From IMG/VR virus record IMGVR_UViG_3300024518_005299, positions 32,001 to 96,000 of that record: 64,000 nucleotides of DNA; one strand, 5' to 3'. Source of the DNA: a virus. How positions within the stretch are numbered: position 1 is the first letter of the stretch; the number at the start of each line of letters is the position of its first letter. Made by a program: the position numbers and the translations under genes. This document shows, piece by piece, positions 35,250 to 64,000 of this stretch. The notes beneath the pieces are model-generated. The model saw nothing but the letters and a program-made list of their open reading frames with translations. It was not told the DNA's origin and did no database searches.

Positions 35250-38200
35250 ATGGGTATCGAGAGTAAAGAAGGTTACAAGAAACGTATTTTATTTGTTGGA
35301 GAGGCGTCGTTCCTCAACACAGGATTTTCTAACATTTATGATCAGCTATTGCCTCGACTAGCTGCAACTAATAAGTATGAGCTTGCCGAGCTTGGTTCGT
35401 ACGCTGGTGATGATGACCCAAGGATCGCAAGCCACATTAAAGGTCAGTGGAAATTCTACGGTAATAACCCTCTCACACCCGAGGAGCAGGCGGCATTCAA
35501 TCAGGAAGACCCCGCTCAACCTGGGCAGAATACTAATCAATTTGGACGTTGGAAGTTTGATGCTGTTCTAGCTGATTTTCGTCCCGACATCGTTATTGAT
35601 ATTCGAGACTGGTGGATGGTGGCGTTCCAAGAGCGAAGTCCATTTAGGAAATACTTTGGTTGGTTGGTTATGCCAACAGTGGATTCTATCCCTCAGAGAG
35701 AAGAATGGATTCGAACGTATATTGATGCTACTTATGTAATGGCATATTCCGATTTTGGTATTGATTCCTTGCGTAAGTCTTCTCCTAGGTTGGAGTTTAA
35801 ATTTGATCCCCCAGAGAAACCTGGGTTTGTTGGTCTTAATAGACCGCATGGTAAATTACACCCCAAGCCTCTGCGTCCTGGCGTAGACCTTAAGACGTTT
35901 TATCCACGGACTAACGAAGAGAAGGGGAAGTTAAAGCAAAAATGGGGTGTTAAACCTGATATTCCAATCATCGTTTTAGTGCAAAGGAATCAAGCGCGCA
36001 AGCGGATCGCGGAAGTAATCTCTTCTTTTGCCATGATGAAGAATAAATATCCAGATAATGACATGATACAAAAGTCTATCTTGTTAATGCATTCTGCATG
36101 GCCAGATAATACTTTGTCGATTGACTTTCCTAGAGAGATCAAGCGTATTCAAACAGGATATCATGGCGCTCCCGTTAGTCGTAAAGGCATTATGCAGGAG
36201 ATCCATTCGACATTCATGTGTCAAAATCAAGCATGTGGAGATGTATTTATTGCGCCATCTATCACGCTAATAAATGGCCCTGTCATTATGTGTCCTAGTT
36301 GCGGACAACAAAGCGCTCGCACTCCCACTACGGGCTTTGGCATTACTCGCGAACAGCTATCAGAAGTGTTTGGCATGGCTGATATGATGGTGCAGATGAG
36401 CATTGCAGAAGGATGTTTTGCTAAAGGAACTTTAATAACAACTAGCGAAGGATTAAAGCCAATTGAGGAGATGAAAATTGGCGATTCGATTTTGAATCAT
36501 AAAGGTGATTGGGCTCCAGTGCATGACGTTTGGGAAAATGATAATCCTGGATGTATAGAAATCAACGTTGCGGGTGATCCTAATTCTGTTATTGTTACAA
36601 AGAATCATAAGATTTATATTTCACCTACAGAAAAGAAACGAGCTGATGAGTTAACATTAGATGACTATGTAATACGTCCAATTGATATGACAGAACTTCG
36701 TCGTGATGAATTGATCGTTGAATTAGAGGACGAGGATAATGTTATGATTAATGGTAAAATGCATCATAAATCAGAACGTTATTTTAATGGATATCCTACA
36801 AAAACAACTATTAATTCTGTTGATCTTGCAAAACATGGATATTTTCTTGGTGTATATATCGCAGAAGGATCAATCACTAATCACTACGTTAGCATAGCCT
36901 TATCTAAAGATGACAATCCAGAGATGGCGCAATCAGTATATGACCTCGCTGCTGATCTAGGTGTTAAAGTTTATGATCGACCTAAAGAGAATAATGGAAG
37001 AGAGTTAACTTTTAGCTCTCACGCTTTTAGTGCGAAATTAGGATCATTATTTGGTTACAATACCAAAGATAAAAAGATTCCATTAGAGTTTATGCAAGCT
37101 CCAAAGGATGTTCAGCGAGAATTTATTGGTGGTTGGTTTGATGGAGATGGAACTCTAGAGAAGCCATTAGTTTCAACGGGTAAAATGAGTCATCGATCAC
37201 TTACTACCCACACTCAAACATTGGCATATCAATGGCGAGACTTACTTGCTCGTTTTGGTATTGTAACATATCTTTATAAAACTAAACGAAATAATTTAGA
37301 ATATGTCGTAAAGGTTTATGGTCATCAGGCTTACTTGTTTGATGTTTTGATCGAGTCTTCAAAAGCACAAAACAGTGGGTATAAACCTACCAAACATACA
37401 AGAGAGTCTTTTAAAATTAAGATAAAAAATGGTTACATTTATTACAAAATTAAAAACATAAAAGATTCTGATTATGATGATTTTACATACAATCTTACTA
37501 TTGATAAATCAAGTGAGGATAGTGACATGGTTTCTAGTTACTCGCTTGGAACATTTAGTGTTAAAAATTGTGGAATGCCAGTTCAGGAAGGCAAGGCGTG
37601 TGGCGTGCCAGCACTAGTAACAGATTACGCCGCTCTTTCTGAAAAGGGCGGCATCCCTAATTATGAACATATCAATAAAGACACCTACAATGTTCATCTA
37701 GGTGGTAAAGCTATGAAGGTTTCGCAATTATATTATGAACCAGAGACCACTACTTGGCGCGCAGCAACTTCTATGGAAGACTGTATGAATAAGATCGCTG
37801 GCATGCTTAGCTCTCCTGAGGAATTAGCACAAATGAGTTTAGACGCTCGGAAATGTGCCGAGGAACATTATGATTGGGATAAGAATTGGAAGGAGTGGGA
37901 GTTTATTTTTGATCATATCACTCCCTTAGATCGTGATACTACATGGGATAAAGAGCTGTCATTGATTGATATTGATACCACCCAGCCATCTCTAGATCTT
38001 AATGATTCTGACTTTGTTGTTTGGTGTTATACGAGACTATTAGGTTATAGCATGAATGATATCGACGAAGAGGGGCATCGTAACTGGATGCAAAAACTTG
38101 CAGTCGAGTTGCAGAGGGGTGTACCAGCCGGGAAGACCCGCAATGAAATCGCAGAATATTTCCGCCAACAGGCAGAAGCACAAAATCAGGTTGAGACACT

Positions 38201-38273
38201 ACGGGCTGGCCAAAAGGCTATCCCGGCTAGTACTACAAAATCTGACGACGCGTTTGAGGCAATTATAATATGA
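35250..38273 (+). CDS. GT-B (GT4-like) glycosyltransferase interrupted by an intein, with zinc-ribbon insert and DUF4214-like C-terminus
   Basis: DFRPDIVIDIRD, RPGVDLKTFYP, VQRNQARKR. After splicing the motif reads SIAEGCGMPVQEGKACGVPALVTD (EX7E). C-terminal FVVWCYTRLLG..DEEGHRNW. Confidence 0.85.
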   Translation: MGIESKEGYKKRILFVGEASFLNTGFSNIYDQLLPRLAATNKYELAELGSYAGDDDPRIASHIKGQWKFYGNNPLTPEEQAAFNQEDPAQPGQNTNQFGRWKFDAVLADFRPDIVIDIRDWWMVAFQERSPFRKYFGWLVMPTVDSIPQREEWIRTYIDATYVMAYSDFGIDSLRKSSPRLEFKFDPPEKPGFVGLNRPHGKLHPKPLRPGVDLKTFYPRTNEEKGKLKQKWGVKPDIPIIVLVQRNQARKRIAEVISSFAMMKNKYPDNDMIQKSILLMHSAWPDNTLSIDFPREIKRIQTGYHGAPVSRKGIMQEIHSTFMCQNQACGDVFIAPSITLINGPVIMCPSCGQQSARTPTTGFGITREQLSEVFGMADMMVQMSIAEGCFAKGTLITTSEGLKPIEEMKIGDSILNHKGDWAPVHDVWENDNPGCIEINVAGDPNSVIVTKNHKIYISPTEKKRADELTLDDYVIRPIDMTELRRDELIVELEDEDNVMINGKMHHKSERYFNGYPTKTTINSVDLAKHGYFLGVYIAEGSITNHYVSIALSKDDNPEMAQSVYDLAADLGVKVYDRPKENNGRELTFSSHAFSAKLGSLFGYNTKDKKIPLEFMQAPKDVQREFIGGWFDGDGTLEKPLVSTGKMSHRSLTTHTQTLAYQWRDLLARFGIVTYLYKTKRNNLEYVVKVYGHQAYLFDVLIESSKAQNSGYKPTKHTRESFKIKIKNGYIYYKIKNIKDSDYDDFTYNLTIDKSSEDSDMVSSYSLGTFSVKNCGMPVQEGKACGVPALVTDYAALSEKGGIPNYEHINKDTYNVHLGGKAMKVSQLYYEPETTTWRAATSMEDCMNKIAGMLSSPEELAQMSLDARKCAEEHYDWDKNWKEWEFIFDHITPLDRDTTWDKELSLIDIDTTQPSLDLNDSDFVVWCYTRLLGYSMNDIDEEGHRNWMQKLAVELQRGVPAGKTRNEIAEYFRQQAEAQNQVETLRAGQKAIPASTTKSDDAFEAIII
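36414..37568 (+). mobile_element. Intein (385 aa) with LAGLIDADG endonuclease
   Basis: Block A CFAKGTLITTSEGLKPIEEMKIGD, block B VTKNHKI, endonuclease YFLGVYIAEGS and FIGGWFDGDG, block F TYNLTI, ends VKN followed by Cys+1. Confidence 0.92.
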
Positions 38274-39472
38274 AAATTCTTTATATCGCTCCCGTAAGAG
38301 ATTTTAGTGGCTACGCTGTAGCCGCTAGGGGTTACATCCGAGCCTTGCACGAGGCGGGTGCTGATCTAGTTGTACGACCAGTACGCTACGACCAGGCAGA
38401 TACGGGTACTGGCTACCAAGTGACTGATCTTGAAAGGGAACTTCTCAAGCGTGATCTCAATAATGTAGATGTTGTGATTCAACATTTAACACCAAATGAA
38501 ATGCGCCCTATAGAGGGCAAGGTTAATATCGCCATTGTGGCATGGGAAACAACTAGAATCCCACAGTATTGGGTAGATAAACTCAATCAATTTGATTCTG
38601 TTATTACTTTCTGTCAGGCAAGTGTCGATGCTTTTAATGACTGCGGAGTCAAGGTGCCGATTTATAAAGTGCCGCACACGTTTGATATTCCTAGCTATAG
38701 TTTGGAGGGCGTGGAGCCTATTTCTGCTCCTAGTAGCCCTAATATCCTTAAGGATCGTTTTATCTTTTATAACATTAGCCAATTCTCTAGCAAGAAGGGT
38801 ATTGATGTTTTATTACGATCATACTTTGGAGCTTTTCATGGTCGTCGCGACGACGTGATGTTGATTCTAAAGACATACATCAATATGAGAGATCGTGATA
38901 AAGAACGTCAGCAGCTACTACAATATATTGATAATGTCAGAGCAGGAATGAGATTGCCCCCGGAGGGCTATCCACAAGTCATGTTGATTACTAATACATT
39001 GACTGATGAACAAATGAAAAAGATCCATGCGACGGGTGATGCATATGTATGTAGCAGTCGAGGAGAAGGCTGGAACATTCCAGCATTTGACGCACTGGCT
39101 TATGGAAACGAATTAATAACCACGTTATGGGGCGGGATGGGAGAGTTCTCTTTAGTTGATGAAGTCAGCCGTAGAGAATCTGCTGGTAGTGGGGGTGCCT
39201 GCGTGCGTGCCAATGTTCATCCAGTAGACTATTCACTAGAGCCACTAGTGGGTCAGACGCATGGTGATCCTGATCTTTACACAAGCTTTGACTTGATTGC
39301 CGAGCCTTCAATTAGCTCAATGATGTATAAAATGAAACTAGTGGTTAATAATCGTGAAGTTCAACCCGCCCCAAACTTAATGGAGTTTGATCATTCGGTA
39401 GTTGGGCCAAGAATGCTGGATGTAATTAAAAATATAGCACCTGCTAAAATATTGGAGGCAACTGATGTCTAA
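38270..39472 (+). CDS. GT4-like glycosyltransferase
   Basis: SGYAVAARGY, AWETTRIP, FYNISQFSSKKGIDVLL, GDAYVCSSRGEGWNIPAFDALAYG. Confidence 0.85.
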   Translation: MKILYIAPVRDFSGYAVAARGYIRALHEAGADLVVRPVRYDQADTGTGYQVTDLERELLKRDLNNVDVVIQHLTPNEMRPIEGKVNIAIVAWETTRIPQYWVDKLNQFDSVITFCQASVDAFNDCGVKVPIYKVPHTFDIPSYSLEGVEPISAPSSPNILKDRFIFYNISQFSSKKGIDVLLRSYFGAFHGRRDDVMLILKTYINMRDRDKERQQLLQYIDNVRAGMRLPPEGYPQVMLITNTLTDEQMKKIHATGDAYVCSSRGEGWNIPAFDALAYGNELITTLWGGMGEFSLVDEVSRRESAGSGGACVRANVHPVDYSLEPLVGQTHGDPDLYTSFDLIAEPSISSMMYKMKLVVNNREVQPAPNLMEFDHSVVGPRMLDVIKNIAPAKILEATDV

Positions 39473-39686
39473 AATATTACAGATAGAATATTTCTCAGAT
39501 CGTTTAATCGTTCATGGTGCCGCATTTGAAGACGTGCTAGTAGCACTTGGCGGCACGTGTGATAACGTTATGCGTATTATTAATGATGATAATTCGTTAT
39601 CATATGAAATTAAGAAAGATAATTATGATAAGGATATTATTTATCATAATGGCAAATTAAATAAGTCTATGCCGATATCTGAATGA
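39465..39686 (+). CDS. Hypothetical protein, 73 aa
   Basis: Overlap-coupled ORF. Confidence 0.5.
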
Positions 39687-40312
39687 CAAAAGCGATTAAT
39701 CTTATTGGACAGAGGTTTGGTAGACTAGTTGTGTTAACTAGATCATCAAATACTAAGACCGGTAGGACGAGATGGCAATGTCAGTGTGATTGTGATAATA
39801 CTACAGTTGTTGTGTCTGATAAGCTAAGATCTGGTAAAACCAAATCTTGTGGTTGTCTACAGCAGGAAAATCGTTTACGGGGTAGACGAACTCATGGAAT
39901 GACAAAGTCTAGAGAGTATCATATTTGGCATGGTATAAAAGCCAGATGTTATAATGCAAATAACCCCGCATACTCTCATTATGGTGGTCGGGGTATTAAT
40001 GTTTGTGATCAATGGTTACAATCATTTGAAAACTTTCTAAAAGACATGGGTCTGGCGCCATCTGATAAACATTCGATTGACCGCATTGATAATAATGGTA
40101 ATTATAAGCCCAGTAATTGTAGATGGGCGACGTTTAAAGAACAAAATAATAACAGAAGAGATAATATATTTGTAGACAGTATTACAACTTTAAAACAATA
40201 TTGTGATAAAAATCATTTACCGTATCAAACAATTCATGCGAGAATTAATAGGCATGGATGGTCAATTGAACGCGCTATAAGAAAGCCAATAAAAAAATGG
40301 AACAAAAGATAG
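39683..40312 (+). mobile_element. Free-standing HNH homing endonuclease
   Basis: [64 protein letters not shown]. Confidence 0.88.
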
Positions 40313-41361
40313 ATAATCCCTTTTCACGTAATTTACCCAACCAAATTTCCGCTATTTGTGATGCTATTGATTCTAAACCTAGGATCACTCAGGTGATCCA
40401 GTGTGTGAACGAGGAACATTTGATTGAACCCTGCGTAATGCAGCTTTATGATAAGGTCGATAGAATTGTCATCGTGGAAGGCGCCGTTCAAAACAAAGTA
40501 GACGCGGGGCAAGCTACTGCTGACGGTCATTCTATAGATGATACTGTTAGTATCATCAAGCGGATTAAGGCTGATAAAGATCCAGACAAGAAGATCACGT
40601 TTGTACAAATCGATCGTCCTTGGGCTGACTTGGAAGAATTAAAGAATACGTTCTTTCAGTACATGCAAGATGGTGACTGGATGCTGATCACTGATGCTGA
40701 TGAATTCATTATGCCTGAAGTAGTTGATAAGTTGCGCGAAGCTATTACAGTAGAGCCTTGGGCTACCGAGTTTGTGCCTGCGGGTTTTTATCACTTCTGG
40801 CGTGACGCTAGTCATATACGCAAACCAAGCGGCGACTGGGGTCAGCAACATCAAAGATTTATCAAATTCCATCCGGGGATGCATTACCAAAATCACCCAG
40901 TTGCCAGAGACAAGGATGGAATTTGCACTTACTTTAGTCAAGAGTATAAGAATCGTCGATTTGTCTTGAAGGATTTTGTGGTGTATCATTATTCGTATTG
41001 TCGAAATGACGAAGCAGATATCCAAGCGAAGAAAGACTTTTATGACAAAGAGCTAGGTCAGGATAAGCATGGAGACGTGGGGGCTTATGCGCGTGGTGGA
41101 CAAACAGATGAGTATCTTGATAAAACAGAAGATCTAAATACAGTGCTTCTCTTTAGTGGAGATCATCCACCTATCATAGCAAAGCATTTAGCCTGGCAGG
41201 GGCAGGGCGTGGTGTTGTCAGATGCGCATTTACAAGATAAAACATTCGAGGATTATAAGAGCGCTGAGCCCTACAACTTAGAAAACGTCCCAGTGTGTTG
41301 GATTTATGATCTAGAAGGCAAGCAGGGATATGTTAACTTTTTCAATACCGTGGATGTATAA
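40297..41361 (+). CDS. GT-A (GT2-like) glycosyltransferase
   Basis: [33 protein letters not shown] (DxD), VVYHYSY. Confidence 0.7.
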
Positions 41362-41597
41362 TGACTGTTAAACTTCCAGAGAAACCAAGGCGTCATCGTT
41401 GGGTGACTGAAGCCATCAATGCGGGCGATCCTACTTTATCAGTCTGGCCATCTCCAGACGACCTCAAGAACGAAAAGAGGCGCGGTCGCTTCTTAGAGAT
41501 TATTGCCAAGGTTGGTAGCGATCCACGTGTGATGCGGGTCGAGAAATTCCCACATGATATTCATAGCGTGGTGTTTTTGTTTCATCTACAAGACTGA
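41361..41597 (+). CDS. Hypothetical protein, 78 aa
   Basis: TAATG overlap. Confidence 0.5.
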   Translation: MTVKLPEKPRRHRWVTEAINAGDPTLSVWPSPDDLKNEKRRGRFLEIIAKVGSDPRVMRVEKFPHDIHSVVFLFHLQD

Positions 41598-42400
41598 TGG
41601 TTAATATCTCTCATATCACTAGTTGTTTTAATAGTGAGCAGTTTCTAGATGGATTAATTGGTAATCTCCTACAACAGAGTGATGAAGACTTTGAGCATAT
41701 CATTGTAGATAGTGCATCCACTGATAGTAGTGTTGAGATCATCAAACGCTGGCAGCAACTAGATCCGCGAATTAAGCTTATAGAACAGCCCACGCGCACA
41801 AATTATGGCACCTCGTGGATGATAGGATGGCAGCAGGCTCAGGGTAAAATTGTTTGCAACTCTAACTCTGACGATAGGTCGTATCCTTGGCGCGGCACTC
41901 AAGTTATTAAAGCTGCACTAGATGCAAGTATTCAATCAGATACTAATAAGCGTTTTTATTACGGTGGTTATGAAACACGGGTTGATGGCGTAACCACAGC
42001 CAAGGGTTATCCGCCGCCGTATACAGAGCACGACCTACAGCAATTCTTTCGCTGTGGCGTGCATGTACATTGGGATAATGCGCTGCGCAATGTTGTGGAT
42101 TGGCCAACTGTGTTTCGCGCAGGCGCTGAGTATAGATCGGCCTTTGATTACTGGCTCGTACTATACTTTACTTCTCTAGGTGCAATAGGTGTCTCTATCC
42201 CCAACTGTTTTAGTATATACAACCAGAGAAAGGACTCGTTAGAACAGTCAGATAAGGAGAGAAGCAGCTTTGAAGCATTGCGCGCTATCTCTACTTTCTA
42301 TCCTAGTGGCCTCTCAATGCGTGACTTTGAGACTAAAACCAAAGTGGAGTCTCCTGAGTATTATAAAAAATATCAGGATTTTCTATCCGAATTCGTTTAA
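41597..42400 (+). CDS. GT2 glycosyltransferase
   Basis: ISHITSCFNSEQFLDGLIGNLLQQSDEDFEHIIVDSASTDSS, NSNSDD, FDYWL. Confidence 0.85.
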   Translation: MVNISHITSCFNSEQFLDGLIGNLLQQSDEDFEHIIVDSASTDSSVEIIKRWQQLDPRIKLIEQPTRTNYGTSWMIGWQQAQGKIVCNSNSDDRSYPWRGTQVIKAALDASIQSDTNKRFYYGGYETRVDGVTTAKGYPPPYTEHDLQQFFRCGVHVHWDNALRNVVDWPTVFRAGAEYRSAFDYWLVLYFTSLGAIGVSIPNCFSIYNQRKDSLEQSDKERSSFEALRAISTFYPSGLSMRDFETKTKVESPEYYKKYQDFLSEFV

Positions 42401-42640: not shown

Positions 42641-43472
42641 TATAACAACTAAAGACAAAACGATTGTCGTCAGCAACATTCCTTTAATGAAATGTATCGA
42701 CGGTTTTCAAAAATGGGAATGGGTAAATGATAAGCAGAAAGAGTTTCTACTAGAGTATGCTAGGAAGCGCCATCTGCTATCTGACTTTTCTGATGAAGAA
42801 CTATTCGGACTCACTGCGTACTCAGCAGCCGAAGTTAATGCTTTCCTTGCCGAGCATGGTTTTGATATCGTCCTTCAGGATCATTCACACGTTCTTGCGA
42901 ATGAGCCCCCTGGTTCGATAGTGATATACATAGCATCTATTCTAAAGCTTGTCTTTGAATGGGACGGCATAGAAATCACCATTAAAGACAAATACCAAGG
43001 AACCTATCTATCAAAAAACCTTAGCTTTTTCGTTTCCTCAAAACATGATCAGCCTATCGTGCAGATTAAGTCTGGAGGAGATGACATCTATATAACCAAG
43101 GCCGAGCCCTCACTACTCTCTGAGCTAGATGATCTCCCATTACATGTTTGTGATGTATTCGATCGTGTAGAGTTTCCGTCCATTGAGTATGATAAAGTTA
43201 TAGATGTTTCGTGGATGGTTGATATGAATTCACCTCATGATATGGTGAGAGTTCTTGAGGCTGTGCAACAAGATAAATTCAGCATGAATCATAAAGGTGT
43301 GAAGATAGAGTCAGCCGCTGCTGTAGCCATACTTGCTAGTGGATGCGCCACCCCCTTTTTCAAACCTGTTGTTCTCACTATTGATGAACCGTTTGTATTT
43401 TGGGCGCGGCGTAATGGAGAGACATATTTTAAAGCTTATTTTGCGCAGGACTCATGGGTAAAAATAGCATGA
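42633..43472 (+). CDS. Serpin-like protein (N-terminally shortened)
   Basis: Ordered serpin-like segments: AEVNAFL (hF), IYIASILKLVFEW (s3A), EAVQQDKFSMNHKG (s5A), VKIESAAAVAIL (hinge/RCL), LTIDEPFVFW (s1C/s4B), TYFKAYF (s5B). Confidence 0.6.
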   Translation: MNDITTKDKTIVVSNIPLMKCIDGFQKWEWVNDKQKEFLLEYARKRHLLSDFSDEELFGLTAYSAAEVNAFLAEHGFDIVLQDHSHVLANEPPGSIVIYIASILKLVFEWDGIEITIKDKYQGTYLSKNLSFFVSSKHDQPIVQIKSGGDDIYITKAEPSLLSELDDLPLHVCDVFDRVEFPSIEYDKVIDVSWMVDMNSPHDMVRVLEAVQQDKFSMNHKGVKIESAAAVAILASGCATPFFKPVVLTIDEPFVFWARRNGETYFKAYFAQDSWVKIA

Positions 43473-44293
43473 AGCATGGTGTTTATCAAATACGGAATAC
43501 TCAAAATGGCAAGATTTATATAGGTAGCTCTATAGACATTGTTGCCAGGTGGCGAGGACATAAAGGTGATATAAAATATCATAGGCATCATTCTAGTAGA
43601 TTGCAATATGCATGGTATAAAGATGGAGCTAATGTGTTTGTTTTTGAAATTTTAGAAGAATGTAATTTAAATGAATTAGAACAACGTGAACAGTATTATT
43701 TGGACACTATGCTATTTGCTAGTTGTAATGATAACAGATTTTATCGTTTGGGATATAACAATTCTAGAGATGCTAGTCAAAAAACAGTAACAAATAAAAC
43801 TAGGATGAAGATGTCACGGGCGGCTAAGTTAAAAGCAAAACCATCACACATCACTCGACAACGAATGTCCGAAGCACAACAAGGCAAGCGATTGGGGGAA
43901 TTATCACCAGGAGCCAAGTCATCTACTCAAGATGTTAAGCAAATGTTGCTTATGGCTATCAATGGATGTTCTGATAGTGAGATTGCTCAAAAATTTGGTA
44001 GAACTATTAAGTCTGTAAATAACATTATTAATGGTAGGACCTGGCCTCATATTAAATTAGACGGTAAAGATCAAGGGAAACTAAAAATCATGAGATCTTT
44101 AAATAGAAATAAATTGAACGCTCGTAAAAGCGGAGAACTAAATGGTAGGAGTAAATTGACGCGACATATAGTTTGGGATATTAAAGATCAAATTGCATTA
44201 GGGTTTTCAAATGTTGAGATTGCCAAACGTTATGATGTTTCTCCAAGTACTATTAGCGGTATTAAAAGGGGCAAGACATGGAAAGACGTGTAA
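43469..44293 (+). mobile_element. Free-standing GIY-YIG homing endonuclease with two C-terminal HTH units
   Basis: GVYQIRNTQNGKIYIGS, LFASCNDNRFYRLGYN, NIINGRTWPHI and GIKRGKTWKDV. ATGA overlap. Confidence 0.9.
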
Positions 44294-54434: not shown

Positions 54435-54720
54435 GGAATCATACACGGTTTATATTGGTCGCGGTGGACACGGGAAATGCGGCTACTGGGGCAATCCTAT
54501 TAAACTTAACTCTAGATGCATTTTGTGTTCTGAAACTCATGAGACTAGAGGTGATACGCTACCCTGTTATGAAAAATATCTACGGCAAAAACTAGCAACA
54601 AGTACGGCTTTTAAAGAGAGATTCTATAGTCTAAATGAAGATGATGTGTTGGGGTGTTTTTGTAAACCTGATGCTTGTCATGGCGAGGTGATGATAAAGG
54701 TATGGAATGAAGAAATATAA
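54412..54720 (+). CDS. DUF4326-like protein
   Basis: VVNLRK..VYIGR..WGNP..YEKYL..LGCFCKPDACHGEV pattern. Confidence 0.75.
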   Translation: MKVVNLRKESYTVYIGRGGHGKCGYWGNPIKLNSRCILCSETHETRGDTLPCYEKYLRQKLATSTAFKERFYSLNEDDVLGCFCKPDACHGEVMIKVWNEEI

Positions 54721-55723
54721 AGTTCTACTGGCATGTCTTCAAAGCGATTTTGGTCAAGACGGCATTCAAAAGTTTGATGATCAGGGTAAGTTTATTAATC
54801 CCTCCTGGGAATTCGAAAACGTTTATAAAGAATGGAAGCAATTAGAAGACGAAGGGTTGGTAGAACTGGAGACCTTTTGGCTAGATAAACAATCTGACGC
54901 TGACCGTGATCGATTAGTCAGTCTTGCTAAAGAGGTAGATTTTATCTATCAGGCGCCAGTTACCCACGCCCTAGGCATCCATCTTCCTCAAGCTCAAAAA
55001 ATTATTGAGGGTGGGACGCCCATTGTGAGTTTTCACCCAGACCTTCACTTGCGTTATAAACATCCTTCCGGGGATCGATTCGTGCATTCTAGGGTAACAG
55101 AAGGATACGACACCCATACGATCACTCCCGCTAAACACATGATGCAGCAACTAGAAGATGATGGAGTAAAGGCATGCTGCATACCATTCGGGATTCCATC
55201 GTCGTGCGACAGGGCGCTAGATGTAGAGCAAATATACGACGTCTCCTTCGTGGGGCAGAAGCATGGTCTACGTGAGCAGGTTGTCTCCCAGTTGCGCGGA
55301 GCTGGCATTCAAGTGCATACCTGGGGTCACTTCTGGCCAGATCACAAGGACCACCATGGGCGTCCTGAGACGTCTGAGATGGTGCGCATCTTTAACCAGT
55401 CGAAGATCAATCTCAATCTCCGCTGGTGCTCCCGAGACGCTAATTATGGTCAAATTAAGGGGAGGGATATGGAATTAATGGGGTGCGGTGCTTTTATGTT
55501 GGCGTCTCAACATGCTGAGTGTGATGACTTTCACGAGCTATATACACCAGATAAGGAATTCGCTGAGTATCATTTTGTAGATGAAATGGTCGAGGGAATC
55601 AAATATTGGTTAGATAATGACGTTTCGCGCAATGCTGTAGCTATGAATGCTTATCATAAGCGCAAGGATAATCTTTGGCAAACTAGACTACGGGGCTTCC
55701 TTGCCGATTGGGGTACTTGGTAA
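54707..55723 (+). CDS. GT-B glycosyltransferase (CgeB/Glyco_trans_1_2-like)
   Basis: YDVSFVGQKHGLRE, VHTWG, IFNQSKINLN, IKGRDMELMGCGAFML. Confidence 0.8.
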   Translation: MKKYKVLLACLQSDFGQDGIQKFDDQGKFINPSWEFENVYKEWKQLEDEGLVELETFWLDKQSDADRDRLVSLAKEVDFIYQAPVTHALGIHLPQAQKIIEGGTPIVSFHPDLHLRYKHPSGDRFVHSRVTEGYDTHTITPAKHMMQQLEDDGVKACCIPFGIPSSCDRALDVEQIYDVSFVGQKHGLREQVVSQLRGAGIQVHTWGHFWPDHKDHHGRPETSEMVRIFNQSKINLNLRWCSRDANYGQIKGRDMELMGCGAFMLASQHAECDDFHELYTPDKEFAEYHFVDEMVEGIKYWLDNDVSRNAVAMNAYHKRKDNLWQTRLRGFLADWGTW

Positions 55724-56436
55724 TGCAAGCTGGTGTTTATAAAATAAAAAATCAAATAAATAATAAGTGCTATATTGGTAGCGCTATTGATGTTCAAATA
55801 CGTTGGACTATTCATAAATCTCAACTAGTTAATCAGTGTCATCACTCAATTCATTTACAACGTGCTTGGAATAAGTATGGAGTAGATACTTTTATATTTG
55901 AGATCCTTGAAGAATGTGATCCGAAACAGTGTTTGGTGCGTGAACAGTACTATTTAAATACTTTATTATTTGCTAGTCATGATGATAAAAGATTCTATGA
56001 ATTAGGTTATAATATTTGTCGTCAGGCGGATAACGTTATGGGTGGTCGTAAACATTCTCAAATATCTAAGATGAAAATGTCTAAGGCTCACAAGGGTAAG
56101 AAATTGTCAGAGCAAACAAAGCAAAAAATGAAAAGACGGTTTCAAAATTCTGAGGATCATCCAATGTATGGCAAAACTCATACTGATGAAGCCAAGCAAA
56201 AAATTAGTGAGGCTGGTCGAGGAAGGATTACCTCCATTAAATGTAGGAAGGCGCTCTCTAATGCTAATCGTGGAGAAGGAAGCTTTCATAGTAAATTAAC
56301 GGAGAGATCAGTGAAAGAGATTAAAAAGATGATTGCAGATGGCAAAGGGACCTCTATGATTGCGCGCAAGTATAAGATTTCACCATCTAGCATTTGCGAT
56401 ATCAAAGCGGGCAGGACGTGGACTTATATAGAATGA
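55723..56436 (+). mobile_element. Free-standing GIY-YIG homing endonuclease
   Basis: GVYKIKNQINNKCYIGS, LFASHDDKRFYELGYN, NUMOD3-like repeats, DIKAGRTWTYI. TAATG overlap. Confidence 0.9.
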
Positions 56437-57207: not shown

Positions 57208-57936
57208 ATGACTAAAATTACGGTTGTAACGTATGTGCATGAAGCGCACAAAAAATGGATCCCATTTTGGGCTGAGCAAATTGGTCAACAAGAGTTTCAA
57301 GATTTTGAAATTCTATTTATTGCTCATAATTGGGGCCAAGAATCAAAAGATCAGGCTATGAGTAATCTTGAATACTTTACCGAAGTAGTTAATGGTTGTG
57401 CTATTTTCGATCTACCTCACTTAGTTCGATTCGAATCTTATTGGAGCGCGCCAGTTATTGGTGAAGTAATCGATGAGGGTTGTAGATTGGTTGAGACGGA
57501 ATACTTCGCTCATTGGGACATCGATGACATTATTCATCCTAAGCGTCTCCTACTACAATCTCAATTTCTAGATGCTAATCCTAATGTCGACTTCTTAGGC
57601 ACCAGAATGGTTGGATTCACTGGCGAACCTGTTCCTGAAATGTTCGAGCTAGACTATATTGAGCCTAATGAACCTAATCTAGATGCGACAGAGCACGATC
57701 AAATAAGGCATTGTCTTTTAAATAAGAATCAGAATTGTTTGGGTCATACGACTCTTGTGTATCGTCCTAGAGACTTGCAAGCCCTCGGGGGCTTCTCGCG
57801 ATCAGACGTTAAGCTAGACGGTAAGTCGCCAGACTTCGAAACCTGGAAAAAGGCTATTATGGCAGGCTTCACGTTTCATAGGTTACCAGAGCTTTGTGCG
57901 CTCTGGAGGCTGGACAGCTCCTCGATCAGGTTGTAA
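57208..57936 (+). CDS. GT2 glycosyltransferase
   Basis: ITVVTYVH, QEFQDFEILFI, YFAHWDIDDIIHPKRL..Q..FL, DFETW. Confidence 0.8.
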   Translation: MTKITVVTYVHEAHKKWIPFWAEQIGQQEFQDFEILFIAHNWGQESKDQAMSNLEYFTEVVNGCAIFDLPHLVRFESYWSAPVIGEVIDEGCRLVETEYFAHWDIDDIIHPKRLLLQSQFLDANPNVDFLGTRMVGFTGEPVPEMFELDYIEPNEPNLDATEHDQIRHCLLNKNQNCLGHTTLVYRPRDLQALGGFSRSDVKLDGKSPDFETWKKAIMAGFTFHRLPELCALWRLDSSSIRL

Positions 57937-57956: not shown

Positions 57957-57987
57957 CGCACGAATTCGTTATATCACCACATAATAG
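57957..57987 (+). promoter_or_regulatory. Phage promoter motif copy 5 (CGCACGA-N14-CACATAATAG)
   Basis: Intergenic exact match, followed by AGGAGG SD and ATG 58003. Confidence 0.75.
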
Positions 57988-58002
57988 GGTAGGAGGTGCC
58001 TG

Positions 58003-58359
58003 ATGTTTGGATCAAAGAAGACAGAAGAACTGCATGGATTATTTGCTAGCATGATCAAACGGATTGATCGTTTGGACAACAATGGCAACGCGATAAGGGA
58101 TCGAATTAGAGACCTTGAGACTCAAAATGACGTGCTACGCGTCAGAATTGAGCAATTAGAAAAGAAGCAGGAGCAGTTACGTGGCGGTCTTAAGGGGTTG
58201 GTTTACGACGAGCCTTTTACCCTACCTATAGAATTTGTCTCCACAGCAGTTGATGTGCCAATAGTTGACCATGTCCACGTTAATAATGACCTCGCTGGGT
58301 GCCATCCGGAAGAATGCATCTATTGTCATCGGGAGTTGAATACGCATAATAATGACTAA
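58003..58359 (+). CDS. Coiled-coil hypothetical protein with C-terminal Cys/His motif
   Basis: Heptad-like IRDLETQNDVLRVRIEQLEKKQEQL. CHPEECIYCH near the end. Confidence 0.55.
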   Translation: MFGSKKTEELHGLFASMIKRIDRLDNNGNAIRDRIRDLETQNDVLRVRIEQLEKKQEQLRGGLKGLVYDEPFTLPIEFVSTAVDVPIVDHVHVNNDLAGCHPEECIYCHRELNTHNND

Positions 58360-59221
58360 AACCATAGGAATTATAGCCTGGGGCGCGCAAGCTGATGTGT
58401 TATATGCCACGCCTATTGTGCGGCATATCAGGGATAAGTTCCCAGATGCACACATTACTTGGCTAGTGCGTGATAAGTTCGCCGAGGTGATTGAAACCAA
58501 TCCATATATTGATAAGGTAAAAACTTTTACCTTACCGAAGGGGCATGCTAATAGGCAGGATGCAGAGTATGTGATGGATAAAACCATTCGAGAATTTGCA
58601 TCTAGAACATATAGCAGGGTATTTGACCTCCAATATTGGCCCACATTTAGTAATTTTTATGAACGCCCAACAGAAGATTTTATATCTTTAAGGGCACGAA
58701 ATGCAGGGTTGGATCCGGCAGAGATTAATGATCGTAGCGTTGTACTTGAACACACTTGTGAGGATGTGGCGCGGACGACTAGATTTTATCTAGATCATTT
58801 AGATGGAACTGAAGGATTTATTACTGTGAATCATATTAGCTATGCAGCAAGTCCTGTATGGTCATTTCAAAACTATAGTGATCTAGTTGATATGCTGGAT
58901 CATGAGTATAATGTAATGTCAGTATTCACAGGTGCTCCGAATGAGCCGATCCCCGAAGGTTGTATTGATGCGCGCGGCATGCCATATCGTCAGTGGGCGT
59001 CACTCATCTCAATGAGTGACCTGTGGTTGGGGTTGGATTCCGGCGCGGTCGCTTTAGCTTGTGCTAGCGATGTGCCTATTATTAAGTTACACAGTAAAGA
59101 TTTTCCATTAGCCAAGACAGGGATCAAAGCTATGGGGTTACGTCAAGAGAATGTATTAGAGCTTTATCCTGCACCTAGTGTAGAAAGAATGGCTGAGTTA
59201 ATTATAGAGAACATGCAATGA
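58352..59221 (+). CDS. GT9 (heptosyltransferase-like) glycosyltransferase
   Basis: GAQADVLYATPIVRHIRDKFPDAHITWLV..VIETNPYIDKV, DLWLGLDSGAVALACASDVPII. Confidence 0.85.
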   Translation: MTKTIGIIAWGAQADVLYATPIVRHIRDKFPDAHITWLVRDKFAEVIETNPYIDKVKTFTLPKGHANRQDAEYVMDKTIREFASRTYSRVFDLQYWPTFSNFYERPTEDFISLRARNAGLDPAEINDRSVVLEHTCEDVARTTRFYLDHLDGTEGFITVNHISYAASPVWSFQNYSDLVDMLDHEYNVMSVFTGAPNEPIPEGCIDARGMPYRQWASLISMSDLWLGLDSGAVALACASDVPIIKLHSKDFPLAKTGIKAMGLRQENVLELYPAPSVERMAELIIENMQ

Positions 59222-59475
59222 AACAATATCTTTTATTTCTAGGTGAAAATTATTATCCATATGGTGGTTGGAAAGATTTTCATGGAGAGTTTGATTCCGT
59301 AAAAGAAGCCAAACAATTTGTGGCTGATAATCCTACGTTTGAGGACAATGGTCATCGGGCTAAGATGAGCTGGGCTCAGATTGTTGATACTACTATCAAT
59401 AAAATAGTTTCAGTATATAAATGGCGATGGAATGAATCCAAACTACATAATGAACCTGGGTGGAAAGAAGAATAA
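59218..59475 (+). CDS. Hypothetical protein, 85 aa
   Basis: YLLFLGENYYPYGGWKDF N-terminus. ATGA-coupled. Confidence 0.55.
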   Translation: MKQYLLFLGENYYPYGGWKDFHGEFDSVKEAKQFVADNPTFEDNGHRAKMSWAQIVDTTINKIVSVYKWRWNESKLHNEPGWKEE

Positions 59476-60644
59476 TGAAGAGTGCTAGCAATTTACGTGA
59501 ATTAAATCAAAATGCTATATATCAAATAATCAATACAACAAATAATAAATGTTATATAGGCAGCACTGAGAGATTAGCTTTAAGATTTAATGAACATATT
59601 TCCTTATTAAGGCGCGGCCAACATCATTCAGTGAAATTGCAAAGAACCTGGGACAAGCATAATGCTGATGTTTTTCAATTCTTAGTATTAGAGCATCCTG
59701 CAGCTCATTGTCTAGTAGATCGAGAACAATATTATCTTGATACAGTTTTATTTGCTAGTTGTAATGATCAAAGATTTCAAGATTTGGGATATAATTGTCG
59801 TCGTAGAGCAGAAAGCAATCGAGGTTTTAAATGGAGTGAAGAATCAAAGAAAAAACTTTCAGAGGCTCTAAAGGGCAAGATTGTTGGCGTAAATCATCCA
59901 ATGGCTAGATTAAATGATAATATTATAAAAGATATTTTATTGACATATTTAAAATCAGATTTAACTAATGTGCAAATTGCTCAAGATTTTGGTGTTTCAA
60001 AAACTAATATTAATGACATCATAAGGGGTAAGATCTGGTCCCATATCCAATTAGACAATGTATATGATCAAGATAAATTAATTGAACTTCGATCTGAGTT
60101 ACAAAGATTAAGTGATACTAAAATGATTGGTAGAGGTATTCATCATGGCATGTCAAAATGGACAGAAAATGATATTATGGAAATACGTCGATTAGTTAAA
60201 AGTGGCGTCACACAAACTGCGGTTGCTGAAAAATATGGCATTAAGCAAGGTTGTGTTTCAAATATAGTTAATCATAAAATTTGGAAACATTTAGATTGGT
60301 TGCAACAAGGTTTATATGAATGGATCCGTTCTGATGAATTTCAAGCTAAGGCTAAACAGGGTGTGGATGTTGAATTTGGCGTATCAACAGTTTATTTGAT
60401 GGAACGTTTATTAATATCTCATGTTCGTGTCTGGCATTTAGAAGATAAAATCAGATTGACTGATGATGATGGAGAGCGTAGTGAGCTTAAACGTCAAATA
60501 GATTATATAAATTCTAAGGTTCGTCCTAGGTTAATATGCGCCATAGAAGATAGCTTAATCAAAGCATATGCTGAACAGGATATGACTATTATCAGTGATG
60601 GCAATCTTAAACATTATGGTAAAGAGTTTGAAGAAGGACTATAA
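59475..60644 (+). mobile_element. GIY-YIG homing endonuclease fused in frame to a DUF4254-like helical domain
   Basis: AIYQIINTTNNKCYIGS, LFASCNDQRFQDLGYN, two HTH units ending NHKIWKHL. No stop follows, and ~117 aa continue with VWHLEDKIR..ELKRQIDYIN. Confidence 0.75.
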
Positions 60645-60650
60645 AGCACG

Positions 60651-60974: not shown

Positions 60975-60977
60975 GGA

Positions 60978-61688
60978 TTGTCAGACAAGATGAATATGCC
61001 ACTTCCCAAATATAAACATGGTGTTTATTTAATACGCAATATTATTAGCAACGATCCTCATGCTTGCTATATTGGTAGCGCCTCTGGTCATGGCTTCAAA
61101 AGTCGTTGGGGCGACCATGTGCGAGACGCTAAGAATCAAAAACATCATTCAATAATATTTCAACGAGCATGGAATAAGTATGGTAGAGATGCGTTTATGT
61201 TTGAAGTTTTGCTTTATTGTGATCCAGAGCATTGTATAATGTATGAACAATTAAGTATGGATCATTATCAACCCAAGTATAATATTTGCAAGATTGCCGG
61301 TAGTAGTCTTGGCGTAAAAAGATCTGAAGAATGTAAAAGAAAAATCAGTGAATCAAAAAAGGGTAATAAAAATTCTTTAGGTATAAAACCATCAGAAGAT
61401 ACAAAAAGAAAAATTAGCTCGTCTTTAAAAGGCAGATTTGGTAAAGAGAAACATCCTATGTGGGGCAAATCTCATTCAGAAGAATCTCGAAGGAAAATAG
61501 CTATAGCTAAAACTGGTTTGAAGGGTGAAAGCGCTGGCAATAGCAAGCTTACCATTAAGCAAGTTAGAGAAATTAGACAAATGATAAATGATGGCATGAG
61601 ACGTATTGATATAGCATCAAAATTTGGCGTATCTCCTGTAACTATTGGAGATATTAAATCTGGAAAAAGTTGGAATGGTGTCATATGA
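60978..61688 (+). mobile_element. Free-standing GIY-YIG homing endonuclease (start uncertain: 60978, 60990 or 60996)
   Basis: GVYLIRNII..CYIGS, YEQ..PKYNI, SEETKRKIS-like repeats, DIKSGKSW end. Lacks the LFASxxDxRF insert of the other five. Confidence 0.88.
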
Positions 61689-62860
61689 GTAAGCGATATT
61701 CGTTAGGGTCAACTAGTATTGGTGAACTAGAAAAGAAATACGTCAATGAAGTTCTAGATGAAAACTACGTAAGCCCAGGCCCTGTAGTTAAACATGTAGA
61801 AGAAGAATGCGCAAGGCTCCATGGTATGAAGCATGGATTGGCGCTAAACTCTGGTCAGGCAGCTATTCATGTGGCTATTCAGGCTATCGTAGAGACCAAA
61901 CTTAAGTCTGGTAAGGAAAAACCATTGGTGGCTGTGCCCGCCTGTACCTATATCTCTACTCTAGCTGCCGCTGTTCTTGCTGGCTGTGATCTTATTCTAG
62001 TTGATGTAGAAGAAGACACTGGCAATATGTGTCCTAATCAATTAAAGGAAACCTTAGAGCGTCATAAAAAACAAGGTGATCCTATCGATATTGTGATCCC
62101 GGTGCATCTTTATGGTCGGGCGTGTAACCCACGGATTTTTACCATTTGTGAAGAGTTTGGCGTATGGGTAGTGGAGGATGCTTGTGAGTCGACTTTCGCA
62201 CTAGGTATTGGCAAAGGTCATATTCTTACAACCTCCTTCTTTTCGAATCACTTGATTTCTGCTGGTGGCGGAGGGGTTATAATGACCAACGATTCGCAAC
62301 TAGATGAGTATTGTTGGAAGTTAATCAATCACGGGCGTAGTGCTCGCTTTGGCAATAATGATATCCATCAGATTGCGGATAAGTTTTGCTTCGATATATT
62401 TGGTCATTCGATGAAGTGGTCTGACCTACCCGCCGCGCTTGCTAAGGCGCAAATAGAAAGAAAAAATGAGTTATATGGGATTCGTCGTAGAAATGCTAAA
62501 GAATTAATTGCTATTCTGGAAGATTGGAAAGATTATATTATACTTCCATTATTAGATGATCATACTTTTATGATGTTTATGATCACTCTTCAAGAACCAT
62601 TAGATGTAAATAATGTTATTCGATATCTCAATGACAATAGTATTGAGGTTAGAAGAGCTATGCCAATTACAAATCAAAAAGTGGTTAGAGAATATTTTGG
62701 CAATAATGATCTAGTAAAGGAATTCCCAGTTGCAGATTTTCTTAATCGACAATCGTTTTATATTGGTGTTCATCCGGAGTTATCGTTGGACGATATACAA
62801 GATATGGGTAGTACTGTTTCTGAAGCTCTCAGGGGAGAAATTAATAGAGTAGAAGCGTAA
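61685..62860 (+). CDS. DegT-fold enzyme with His in place of the catalytic Lys (ColD-like GDP-4-keto-6-deoxymannose 3-dehydratase candidate)
   Basis: [54 protein letters not shown] (His codon 62249-62251 where DegT has Lys). No GRDCxC Fe-S motif. Confidence 0.75.
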
Positions 62861-63507
62861 TGGGAAAATTCATAGATCTGACAGGAGAGATATTTAGCAG
62901 GTTAACTGTTTTGCGTTATGTCAGTAATAATACATGGGGTAATGCTCAATTTTTATGTGAATGTAGCTGTCTCGCTAAAACACAAGTAGTAGTTACTGGA
63001 TGCAACTTGCGTTCTGGCAATACCAAATCTTGTGGATGTTTACAAAAAGAAGCAAGAGTGAAATTTACATACATGCATACAACACATGGTGCTAGTAAAA
63101 ATGGATATCATACTAAAGAATATAGATGTTGGCGACGTATTAAAGAAAGGTGTTATAATCCAAATCATGAACATTACGAGCATTATGGAGATAGGGGTAT
63201 TACTATGTGCTCAGAATGGCTTAATTCTTACTCCACCTTTTTAAAAGACGTAGGCGAGGCGCCAACTCCTAAGCATTCCATTGACCGCATTAATACCAAT
63301 GGTAATTATGAACCTGGTAATTGTAGATGGGCCACTCCAACGGAACAGGCTAATAATAAAAGAAATAATTTAGTGATAGAGGATAAGACTTTGGCTCAAA
63401 TTTGTAAAGAAAAAGACTTACCATATGCTTCTATTCATGCTAGAATTAAAAAACTCAATTGGTCAATTGAAGAGGCAATCAATACACCCATAGGACAAAA
63501 ACGATGA
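62860..63507 (+). mobile_element. Free-standing HNH homing endonuclease
   Basis: [65 protein letters not shown]. Confidence 0.88.
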
Positions 63508-64000
63508 TTTATGATAATTCAACTATTCTGATCACTGGAGCTGGGGGGTTCCTCGGTCATCATACAGTTAAAGCGTTTAAAGAGTATAAAAACGGTGGGA
63601 CTAATGGTGCTCGTAAGGGTATAAAAATTTTGATGCCAACACATAATGAATTAGATCTTTTAGAAGAAGATGACATTTCTTGTTATATGACAGAACATCA
63701 ACCTGATATCGTTATTCATCTAGCTGCTATATGTGGTGGGATCGGAGCTAATAGGGAAAGACCAGGAGAGTTTTTGTATAATAACCTTATAATGACTACG
63801 AACTTGATTGAATGGTGTGCCCGTCTAACTCGTAATCAGGATGGTCCTACTATTCATAAGTTTGTTGGTGTTGGTACTGTGTGCTTTACATCTGATGCAT
63901 TTATCAAAACTGGGAATAGTTATACTACTATTGATAACATTTCTTTAGATCATAAAGTTAGTAGTAGAAATTTTGCCGATTGTTCTGTAGTCGACATTTT
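63504..64000 (+). CDS. GDP-L-fucose/GDP-L-colitose synthase-like (Fcl/WcaG/ColC) SDR, 3' truncated, interrupted by an intein
   Basis: My translation from ATG 63504 (not in the ORF track): [53 protein letters not shown], then intein-like sequence. Confidence 0.85.
63882..64000 (+). mobile_element. Intein N-terminal splicing region (truncated by window end)
   Basis: [28 protein letters not shown] replaces the expected C(S/A)YP continuation and resembles intein block A (CFxxdtxIxt..g...IxdIxxgdxVxs). Confidence 0.75.

Follow-up and report, generated by a model that had tools for sequence, protein, structure and literature searches.

A soluble glycan-assembly island that may act on the virion in a clade of uncultured DnaE-type tailed phages

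The IMG/VR virus record IMGVR_UViG_3300024518_005299 (G000), a linear contig of 131,680 bp with a CheckV completeness of 83%, carries a large glycan-assembly island. We analyzed a stretch of 64,000 nucleotides of this record (bases 32001-96000, hereafter the window). Coordinates are those of the window unless stated otherwise, and window-equivalent coordinates extend the same numbering past 64000 into the rest of the contig. The island runs from 35250 to ~67190 (31.9 kb) and ends 3.2 kb beyond the window. Glycan enzymology makes up ~54% of it. With moderate confidence, we read the island from its genes and their order as an entirely soluble, phage-encoded assembly line whose glycan is placed on the virion, on a phage-encoded acceptor. 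More tentatively, we propose carrier-free virion glycosylation of giant-virus complexity throughout a widespread clade of large aquatic tailed phages, with GT4A on at least 361 IMG/VR contigs. It would combine a GT4A/GT4B core, a serotype-like cassette, phage-made colitose or fucose, a Ser-Gly-hydrophobic sequon in tail fibers, and glycan genes so indispensable that they form a major intein reservoir.

Glycosyltransferases of the island

All open reading frames (ORFs) from 35250 to the island end were searched against Pfam, NCBIfam, PHROGs, PDB and Atlas. The + strand carries all large genes of the window, including every annotated gene given below with window coordinates. Eleven glycosyltransferases (GTs) were found: two GT4, five GT2, one GT-A/GT8-like, two CgeB-type and one GT9-like. 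This agrees in count and family split with the original prediction, which had been made from the letters of the window alone. The first of them, GT4A (35250..38273), is an intein-interrupted GT4 with a Zn-ribbon insertion and a C-terminal helical domain. In Pfam it matched LAGLIDADG_3, Hint and Intein, and weakly Glycos_transf_1. The intein-free ortholog in G001, a relative whose complete genome of 176,061 bp has direct repeats at its ends, matched PF00534 with 52.7 bits; this profile was matched by 61 of 66 family members. GT4A has the GT-B fold and an EX7E-type motif (AEGCGMPVQEAKACG), as CAZy GT4 (retaining GT-B) requires. An AlphaFold2 model of the G001 protein, built from a 66-sequence alignment (pLDDT 92, pTM 0.91), shows a GT-B fold, a four-Cys Zn-ribbon insertion and a C-terminal helical domain. 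The top PDB structure match of the model is 3OY2, the chlorovirus NY2A protein B736L (E 1.9e-18, target TM score 0.81), followed by the retaining GT4 enzymes MshA, BshA, PimB' and PglA. A PC4-like PDB match at GT4A residues 93-135 (E 0.007) was rejected; the model places this segment in the N-terminal Rossmann domain. As a possible model of the two GT4 enzymes we considered the GtfA/GtfB pair, which transfers O-GlcNAc to serine-rich-repeat proteins; it fell outside the top structural matches.

GT4B (38270..39472) is a divergent second GT4 with weak Pfam matches (Glycos_transf_1 and Glyco_trans_1_4) and 60-68% identity in relatives. Its sole PDB sequence match is also B736L (3OY2, E 0.008). Among the GT2-type enzymes, GT2a (40297..41361) matched PF00535 with 23.6 bits (cut-off 23.3) and has a D-A-D motif invariant in 5 orthologs, and GT2b (41597..42400) matched the same profile with 74 bits and has invariant VDSxSTD and SDDRS motifs. 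GT2c (51224..52006; PF00535, 37 bits) and GT2d (53138..53893; PF00535, 33 bits) lie in the variable cassette described below. The divergent GT2-like protein GT2e (57208..57936) reached 16 bits with PF00535 (34 bits for the G001 ortholog) and keeps an invariant DxDD motif. A putative glycosyltransferase of the GT-A fold (GT8-like, 44278..44970) has no Pfam match; its RDCDS (DxD) motif is invariant, and its structure matched a viral GT2-bearing cluster in Atlas with a TM score of 0.90 and also "hexosyltransferase" clusters. The two CgeB-type enzymes (PF13524) are located at 48360..49295 (CgeB1; 37 bits, 50-59% identity in four relatives) and 54707..55723 (CgeB2; 85.8 bits, 51-67% identity in relatives). 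The GT9-like protein (58352..59221) carries a GLDSGAxxLA motif; its ortholog profile matched PDB 3TOV (GT9) with E 6.7e-7, and Atlas gave 0.96 to GT9 clusters.

Motifs were checked in ortholog alignments from five related phages. The acidic or nucleotide-sugar motifs DAD, SDD, RDCDS, DxDD and EX7E are kept invariant, so the glycosyltransferases do not look dead, a concern that the original prediction had raised. In G001, an RfaE-domain-II-like (heptose-1-phosphate adenylyltransferase-like) gene (L017:13766-14185) is found just 5' of the GT2e and GT9-like genes; it has no ortholog in G000. Its position hints that the GT9-like enzyme of G001 may use an ADP-activated sugar.

Sugar-nucleotide, tailoring and guanine-nucleotide genes

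An aminotransferase, an N-acetyltransferase, two methyltransferases, a ColD-like protein and an Fcl/ColC-like protein had been predicted in the island, and all were found. The nucleoside diphosphate (NDP)-4-keto-6-deoxyhexose 4-aminotransferase (DegT family, 49453..50685; PF01041, 235 bits) stands at the start of the cassette. It matched TDP-4-keto-6-deoxyhexose 4-aminotransferases in PDB (CalS13, AtmS13, 4XAU, 4ZWV) with E values of 1e-94 to 1e-107 and keeps the Schiff-base Lys (SFQAIKHL). The cassette also encodes two S-adenosylmethionine-dependent methyltransferases, one at 50664..51242 (PF13578, 60 bits; ortholog in G002 only) and one at 52395..53165 (PF13649, 27.6 bits), and a GNAT N-acetyltransferase (53865..54434; PF13302 / PF00583, 46-48 bits) with a weak PseH-like match.

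The ColD-like protein (61670..62860; PF01041, 193 bits) is a candidate pyridoxamine phosphate-dependent dehydratase of the DegT fold. A His replaces the Schiff-base Lys (FSNH aligned with FxxxK of the aminotransferases) and recurs in the G001 ortholog (43% identity). Its PDB matches include 7B0M (1e-33), perosamine synthase (1e-24) and ColD (1e-18). The Fcl/ColC-like GDP-4-keto-6-deoxymannose epimerase/reductase, a short-chain dehydrogenase/reductase, starts at 63504 with its N-terminal part in the window and ends at window-equivalent 65630; it is 708 aa long because of a 380-aa intein. Its best family is NCBIfam GDPFucSynFcl, with 254 bits here and 281 bits for the intein-free G001 protein against a cut-off of 500, and its sequence fits Fcl and ColC alike. 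The locus continues past the window, as had been predicted, with the rest of this gene, an HNH gene and Gmd up to 67192. Gmd (GDP-mannose 4,6-dehydratase; window-equivalent 66125-67192, outside the window) matched PF16363 with 364.7 bits. Its best family is TIGR01472 (358.6 bits, under the equivalog cut-off of 415). The earlier suggestion to look downstream for gmd, manB/manC and wzx/wzy was thus borne out for gmd, while ManB/ManC, Wzx and Wzy were not found there. A profile search with PF00483 (ManC/RmlA type nucleotidyltransferase) was negative, and GDP-mannose must therefore come from the host.

Three purine- or nucleotide-related genes conserved within the island had been overlooked. They encode a xanthine/guanine phosphoribosyltransferase-like (XGPRT-like) protein (44970..45443; NCBIfam PRK09177, 53.5 bits, below the cut-off; weak Pfam Pribosyltran), an IMPDH-like enzyme without the CBS subdomain (45427..46455; PF00478, 355 bits), which is kept in all relatives, and a weakly matched MazG-like nucleoside triphosphate pyrophosphohydrolase (47040..47570; PF03819, 21.5 bits against a cut-off of 22). 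In PDB the IMPDH-like enzyme matched bacterial IMPDH cores (1e-83) better than GMP reductases (1e-58). These three genes may boost the guanine-nucleotide supply for GDP-sugars.

Searches for membrane, lysogeny and base-modification genes

Hydropathy was scanned for all ORFs, and neither the 131.7-kb contig nor complete G001 encodes a protein with more than three predicted transmembrane (TM) segments. Hydropathy scans of the same two genomes found no initiating polyprenyl-phosphate transferase (WecA/WbaP type), flippase, polymerase or ABC transporter. The original prediction had noted the lack of a flippase, polymerase or multi-TM exporter in the window; the finding now extends to the whole contig and to G001. 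The only island ORF noted with two predicted TM segments encodes 73 aa (42419-42640). This ORF and a 279-aa ORF without matches, both in the interval 42419-43472, are found only in this phage and look like mobile-insertion cargo beside a GIY-YIG gene.

The tyrosine integrase profile PF00589 gave no match in the contig or in G001, and since no integrase was found, the island is not a case of classical lysogenic conversion. A near-DNA search against 50,697 GenBank phage records gave 0 matches, as did a tblastn search with GT4A, and nothing in these records is more than 33% identical to the DnaE protein. The lack of a near-DNA match and the low DnaE identity indicate an uncultured phage and not a bacterial chromosome or a prophage edge. 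The phage assignment made earlier therefore stands, with the terminal repeats of complete G001 and the lack of PF00589 on its side.

Base-modifying enzymes were looked for in G000, G001 and G006. ThyA-type hydroxymethylase (PF00303), C5 DNA methylase (PF00145), PurZ and TGT/DpdA were absent from the three genomes; PurZ and DpdA were included because of the purine genes of the island. Tet/JBP (PF12851) gave no match in the same genomes, in a search whose control was uninformative. ThyX, dUTPase and ribonucleotide reductase (RNR) are present in the phage.

Conservation of the island and its swappable cassette

The island is syntenic in G001 (23.2 kb), G006 (21.4 kb, on a 175-kb contig) and G007 (20.0 kb), and partially in G002. 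All or most relatives keep the sigma factor gene, GT4A, GT4B, GT2a, a 78-aa ORF, GT2b and the GT-A protein, followed by the IMPDH-like gene, CgeB1, CgeB2, GT2e, GT9, the ColD-like gene, Fcl and Gmd. Between CgeB1 and CgeB2 is the variable cassette, of which two types were seen. In type A, carried by this phage and G002, the CalS13-like aminotransferase is followed by a methyltransferase, a GT2, a 131-aa ORF and another methyltransferase. In G000 a further GT2 and the GNAT gene come next; the G002 contig stops short of this position. Type B, as seen in G001, combines a methyltransferase and a sugar N-formyltransferase with a DegT unlike that of type A. Its distinct DegT is common to G006 and G007.

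The GT4A family has 456 cluster representatives (E <= 1e-30) in a library of 1.84 billion proteins and is found at no fewer than 361 IMG/VR loci, the best 80 of which were used for clade-wide counts of gene order. DnaE lies directly 5' of GT4A in 80/80 loci, with DnaE identity down to 31%. GT4A is followed by GT4B in 62/80, GT2a in 43/80 and GT2b in 36/80 of the loci. The DnaE-GT4A block is also found on the 158-kb L036 (NZ_JAILWB010000012.1, GC 52%), from a Hydrogenophaga metagenome-assembled genome (MAG), which additionally has a sigma-like gene, GT4B, GT2a and GT2b, and on the 155-kb L037 (JAJDCA010000037.1, GC 35%), from an Omnitrophota MAG. L036 and L037 are probably phage genomes that were mis-binned or co-binned with those bacteria or infect them. 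For distant GT4A homologs, the gene context was taken from IMG/VR and GTDB loci. From gene order, the island belongs to the core genes of a large clade of uncultured tailed phages with genomes of 130-180 kb and a DnaE-type polymerase. Its GT core stays invariant while DnaE identity drops to 31% and GC ranges over 35-52%, and this constancy in such unlike genomes argues for a phage-encoded acceptor.

Inteins and homing endonucleases

Selfish DNA, which the original prediction had missed, takes up ~7.6 kb (24%) of the 31.9-kb island, in the form of two inteins, four GIY-YIG genes and three HNH genes. The size of ~29 kb in the original prediction was overstated: about a quarter of it is homing endonucleases and inteins, and relatives fit the island in 20-23 kb. 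The GT4A intein (36414..37568, residues 389-773) contains a LAGLIDADG endonuclease and is inserted in the EX7E motif (IAEG/C...KN/CGMPVQE, slashes at the borders). The Fcl intein of 380 aa (start at 63882, residues 127-506; GTV/C...VHN/CSYP) is located directly before the conserved Cys of CSYP. Both have Cys1, TxxH, a terminal Asn and a +1 Cys, as class 1 inteins do; the GT4A intein has a Lys in place of the penultimate His. Alignment showed that both are precisely absent from intein-free orthologs.

L037 carries an allelic intein at the EX7E site of its GT4A (L037:7779-10856). In G002 the GT4A gene (contig positions 30768-33809, in L034) has an intein at a different site (PDIV/C), and another intein is found in the G002 DegT. 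Inteins are present in 40 of the top 150 representatives of the GT4A family, at no fewer than two insertion sites, and on these sequences the family is an intein hot-spot. Some representatives are 1300-1560 aa long, with two inteins each possible. At two sites in GT4A and also in Fcl and DegT, the inteins interrupt catalytic motifs, a pattern typical of genes that a phage cannot lose. A third intein of this phage was noticed in ThyX (genome 108099-109910; window-equivalent 76099-77910), which is 603 aa long here and 278 aa in G001; the intein has 319 aa (RFIH/C...SGN/CEVMTHR).

The free-standing endonuclease genes are distributed through the island. HNH genes are located at 39683..40312 (phrog_374, E 5e-75; absent from relatives at that site and without a G001 ortholog), at 62860..63507 (phrog_374, E 1e-65) and, outside the window between the Fcl-like gene and Gmd, at window-equivalent 65603-66121. 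A GIY-YIG gene at 43454..44293 matched PF01541 with 45 bits and has helix-turn-helix domains. Domain searches identified the other three at 55708..56436 (GIY-YIG/NUMOD3), 59460..60644 (GIY-YIG) and 60978..61688 (GIY-YIG/NUMOD3).

Ser-Gly-hydrophobic motif in tail proteins

The motif SG[hydrophobic] was counted against a composition-shuffled expectation. The tail module has 69 copies with 18.7 expected (3.7-fold), compared to 87 with 57 expected in the rest of this genome. Proteins of the tail module in the interval 4267-20449, which includes a 1503-aa tail protein at 7730-12241, are enriched 3-4.5-fold. The 1539-aa tail protein of G001 has 37 copies with 7.6 expected. The reversed motif showed no enrichment. 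The 3-4.5-fold enrichment extends to four minus-strand proteins at genome 113447-117548 (window-equivalent 81447-85548).

A second motif, TTAGTGTAT[AT]A, precedes portal, head and tail genes by 18-80 nt and resembles a late promoter. Its sites are 6888 and 15133 in the window and, in genome coordinates, 11614, 15177, 18503, 19366, 25261 and 102615, with 116463, 119110 and 129443 on the minus strand.

Neighboring genes

The TerL and portal genes are upstream of the window, and the last tail gene ends at 20449. The DnaB gene (22783-24273) and the DnaE-type polymerase gene (29968-33384) are inside the window, and DnaE, SSB and then a sigma factor gene precede the island. The sigma factor (34581..35228), directly 5' of the island, is a sigma-70 family protein of the ECF (extracytoplasmic function) type (TIGR02937, 53.3 bits, cut-off 42.9; Pfam Sigma70_r2) and is found at the same position in G001, G006, G007 and G002. 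On the 3' side of the island is a recombination/nucleotide block of annealase/Whirly, dUTPase, a DAO-type oxidoreductase, RNR and ThyX. A conserved 231-aa gene 3' of Gmd (window-equivalent 67205-67900) encodes a protein with the appearance of a charged helical protein and not of an enzyme. It is followed by a DUF559/restriction endonuclease-like gene (window-equivalent 67904-68668; L002:4904-5668), which has 68-69% identity at the same position in G006 and G007 and is perhaps fixed in place and not a mobile endonuclease. A tRNA scan of four loci outside the window found none.

Proposed pathway and acceptor

We infer the following pathway, including its sugars, the order of its steps and its acceptor. 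Phage Gmd would convert host GDP-mannose into GDP-4-keto-6-deoxymannose, and the Fcl-like enzyme would turn this into GDP-L-fucose. Alternatively, the His-bearing ColD-like enzyme followed by the Fcl/ColC-like enzyme could produce a 3,6-dideoxyhexose of the colitose type. The 4-aminotransferase, GNAT and two methyltransferases of the cassette are predicted to produce an N-acetylated, methylated 4-amino-4,6-dideoxyhexose, and relatives may make an N-formyl version in place of the N-acetyl one. The IMPDH-like and XGPRT-like enzymes may raise the guanine-nucleotide pool that is consumed by GDP-sugars. The eleven soluble GTs would then build an oligosaccharide in the cytoplasm without a lipid carrier, flippase, polymerase or exporter, with the conserved GT4A/GT4B pair as the likely initiating or core step. 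The acceptor is most likely the phage's own virion, especially the tail-tip and fiber proteins with the Ser-Gly-hydrophobic excess. Such self-glycosylation would be analogous to that of chloroviruses and mimivirus and to CgeB-type glycosylation of the spore crust. A virion acceptor is favored because there is neither carrier or export machinery nor lysogeny, because the inteins mark the genes as indispensable, and because the enrichment of SG[hydrophobic] among tail-module proteins is directional and is replicated in G001.

Several points weigh against this proposal. The Ser-Gly motif could have a structural role in fiber folds, and Ser/Thr-rich C-terminal acceptor tails of the mycobacteriophage type were looked for in the phage and not found. 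The island is in the replication/nucleotide module, ~15 kb from the last tail gene. There are zero copies of TTAGTGTAT[AT]A between 20450 and 70600, and so none before the island, which seems to be transcribed with the replication genes. The GT4, GT2 and GT9 families act mostly on lipid-linked or soluble acceptors. GTs free of TM helices are not decisive, because peripheral lipopolysaccharide (LPS) glycosyltransferases also lack such helices. A polymorphic cassette would be equally expected from O-antigen diversification. The ColD-like protein is nearer by sequence to 7B0M and perosamine synthase than to ColD, Gmd and the Fcl-like protein are both under the NCBIfam equivalog cut-offs, and binning in a MAG is weak evidence of the host.

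Remodeling of the host envelope is unlikely in our estimate, and among the alternatives it survives best. Phage enzymes would extend undecaprenyl-phosphate-linked or lipid A-core intermediates of the host, and host Wzx, Wzy, WaaL or ABC exporters would display the product; the altered surface would block superinfection, grazers or re-adsorption of progeny over a long latent period. The gene content is O-antigen-like (Gmd, Fcl, ColD-like, DegT, acyltransferase, GT2, GT4, GT9), GT9 members are classically LPS heptosyltransferases, and the cassette is flanked by conserved genes as in serotype loci. Apparent co-transcription with early/middle replication genes, without the late-type motif, would suit this explanation as well, and the clusters of P-SSM2 and jumbo cyanophages have been interpreted in this way (PMC1079782, PMC7824862). 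However, no initiating phosphoglycosyltransferase, flippase, polymerase, ligase or exporter is encoded in the contig or in complete G001, and a host-specific pathway is not expected to accept the same enzymes across backgrounds as different as those in which the GT core is invariant. In closely related cyanophages, by contrast, the clusters occur sporadically (PMC7824862).

Another soluble or intracellular acceptor is improbable. It could be a free oligosaccharide, a glycolipid, a glycosylated small molecule or a host protein, for example in sugar-nucleotide sequestration or modification of a host factor. The closest solved GT4 structures after B736L do use small molecules or lipids (MshA, BshA, PimB', GlgM), but eleven GTs with tailoring enzymes, present clade-wide, suit a defined surface glycan better than a metabolite, and we know of no phage precedent for a glycosylated metabolite or intracellular acceptor of this kind.

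Hypermodification of DNA, in which the GT4 pair and perhaps further GTs would glycosylate phage DNA bases against restriction, is very improbable: the position of GT4A downstream of DnaE and SSB in 80/80 loci, the Pfam GT4-conflict profile (also matched by 18/66 family members), the MazG-like and purine-nucleotide genes within the island and the Zn-ribbon insertion of GT4A would fit it, but the ThyA-type hydroxymethylase, C5 methylase, PurZ and TGT/DpdA are absent from the three genomes searched, ThyX, dUTPase and RNR point to ordinary deoxynucleotide pools, T4-type DNA glucosyltransferases rank only 49 among the structural matches, and GDP-6-deoxy, dideoxy and amino sugars with 11 GTs, an acetyltransferase and methyltransferases are far beyond any DNA glycan known to us. 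The original prediction had left the choice between cytoplasmic glycosylation of virion proteins and of DNA. Clade-wide conservation and the Ser-Gly motif of the tail favor virion proteins; the negative searches for base-modifying enzymes in the three genomes and the presence of ThyX and dUTPase disfavor DNA.

If the virion is the acceptor, tailed phages, like giant viruses, would decorate their particles with complex glycans that vary between strains. This would have a bearing on adsorption, on evasion of host defenses and grazers, and on the annotation of "auxiliary" sugar genes in environmental phages. The locus is also a compact candidate pathway for GDP-colitose or GDP-fucose, and one of its glycosyltransferase families has unusually many inteins, inserted exactly in catalytic motifs.

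Comparison with known systems

Large sugar-gene clusters of phages are commonly interpreted as "LPS" modules that act on the host surface, a role that to our knowledge has been put to the test in none of them. Virion glycosylation has been proven in chloroviruses (PMC4691112) and, according to PMC10527164 as cited in PMC12619734, in mycobacteriophages. Like the chloroviruses (PBCV-1/NY2A) and giant viruses, this phage encodes GMD and GMER/Fcl for making GDP-6-deoxyhexoses and multiple soluble GTs and methyltransferases independent of the membrane glycosylation machinery of the cell, and its glycan genes differ among related viruses. The chlorovirus protein B736L, a GDP-mannose-binding GT-B enzyme, is the top solved match of GT4A and the sole PDB sequence match of GT4B. 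GDP-mannose is the best ligand of B736L, and chloroviruses encode GMD and GMER that supply the fucose and rhamnose of their capsid glycans (PMC4691112). The host here is prokaryotic, the virion is tailed and the acceptor is a predicted one, whereas the chlorovirus acceptor is the major capsid protein. Identity to B736L is only ~13%, and the island adds a ColD-like step, amino-sugar tailoring and many inteins and homing endonucleases.

The "LPS / cell-wall" clusters of cyanomyoviruses (P-SSM2, S-SCSM2R) also belong to large lytic marine phages and have many GT families and NDP-sugar dehydratases/epimerases (PMC1079782, PMC12801897, PMC7824862); jumbo cyanophages have been reviewed (PMC7824862). 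With 24 "LPS" genes in P-SSM2 (PMC1079782) and 13 GTs among 22 genes in S-SCSM2R (PMC12801897), the earlier claim that the locus is much larger than typical phage GT sets went too far. In contrast to these clusters, the island stands on an unrelated DnaE-type backbone, is core and syntenic across its clade rather than sporadic, and has a candidate colitose branch and inteins. In mycobacteriophages such as Che8 and Corndog, phage GTs, in some with a methyltransferase, decorate virion proteins in the cytoplasm (PMC10527164, via PMC12619734). As that account has it, their one to four GT genes are located beside capsid or tail-tube genes and the glycans are on C-terminal tails, whereas here 11 GTs and sugar-nucleotide synthesis are in the replication/nucleotide module of a phage without Ser/Thr-rich C-terminal tails.

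Bacterial O-antigen clusters with GDP-colitose (Gmd-ColD-ColC), such as those of E. coli O55/O111, likewise contain Gmd, a DegT-fold enzyme with His for Lys, an Fcl-type epimerase/reductase and GTs. Unlike them, the island has no ManB/ManC, Wzx, Wzy or initiating transferase, and its ColD-like protein is nearer to perosamine synthase-like enzymes than to ColD. The spore crust of Bacillus subtilis (CgeB, Sps) resembles the island in two CgeB-type (PF13524) GTs, GT2s, a DegT aminotransferase and a GNAT, and in the placing of a glycan on a protein shell within the cytoplasm, with no export step (PMC13577073). There, CgeB putatively O-glycosylates a protein of the spore crust, a shell that is assembled in the cytoplasm (PMC13577073). 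Orthology to the crust genes stops at the level of families, and the donor sugars are not the same. Glycan clusters of large size had been described from lytic marine phages (P-SSM2, S-SCSM2R); the present locus stands apart by its unrelated DnaE-type backbone, its core and syntenic position in a very large clade, its candidate colitose branch, its serotype-like cassette and its saturation with inteins and homing endonucleases.

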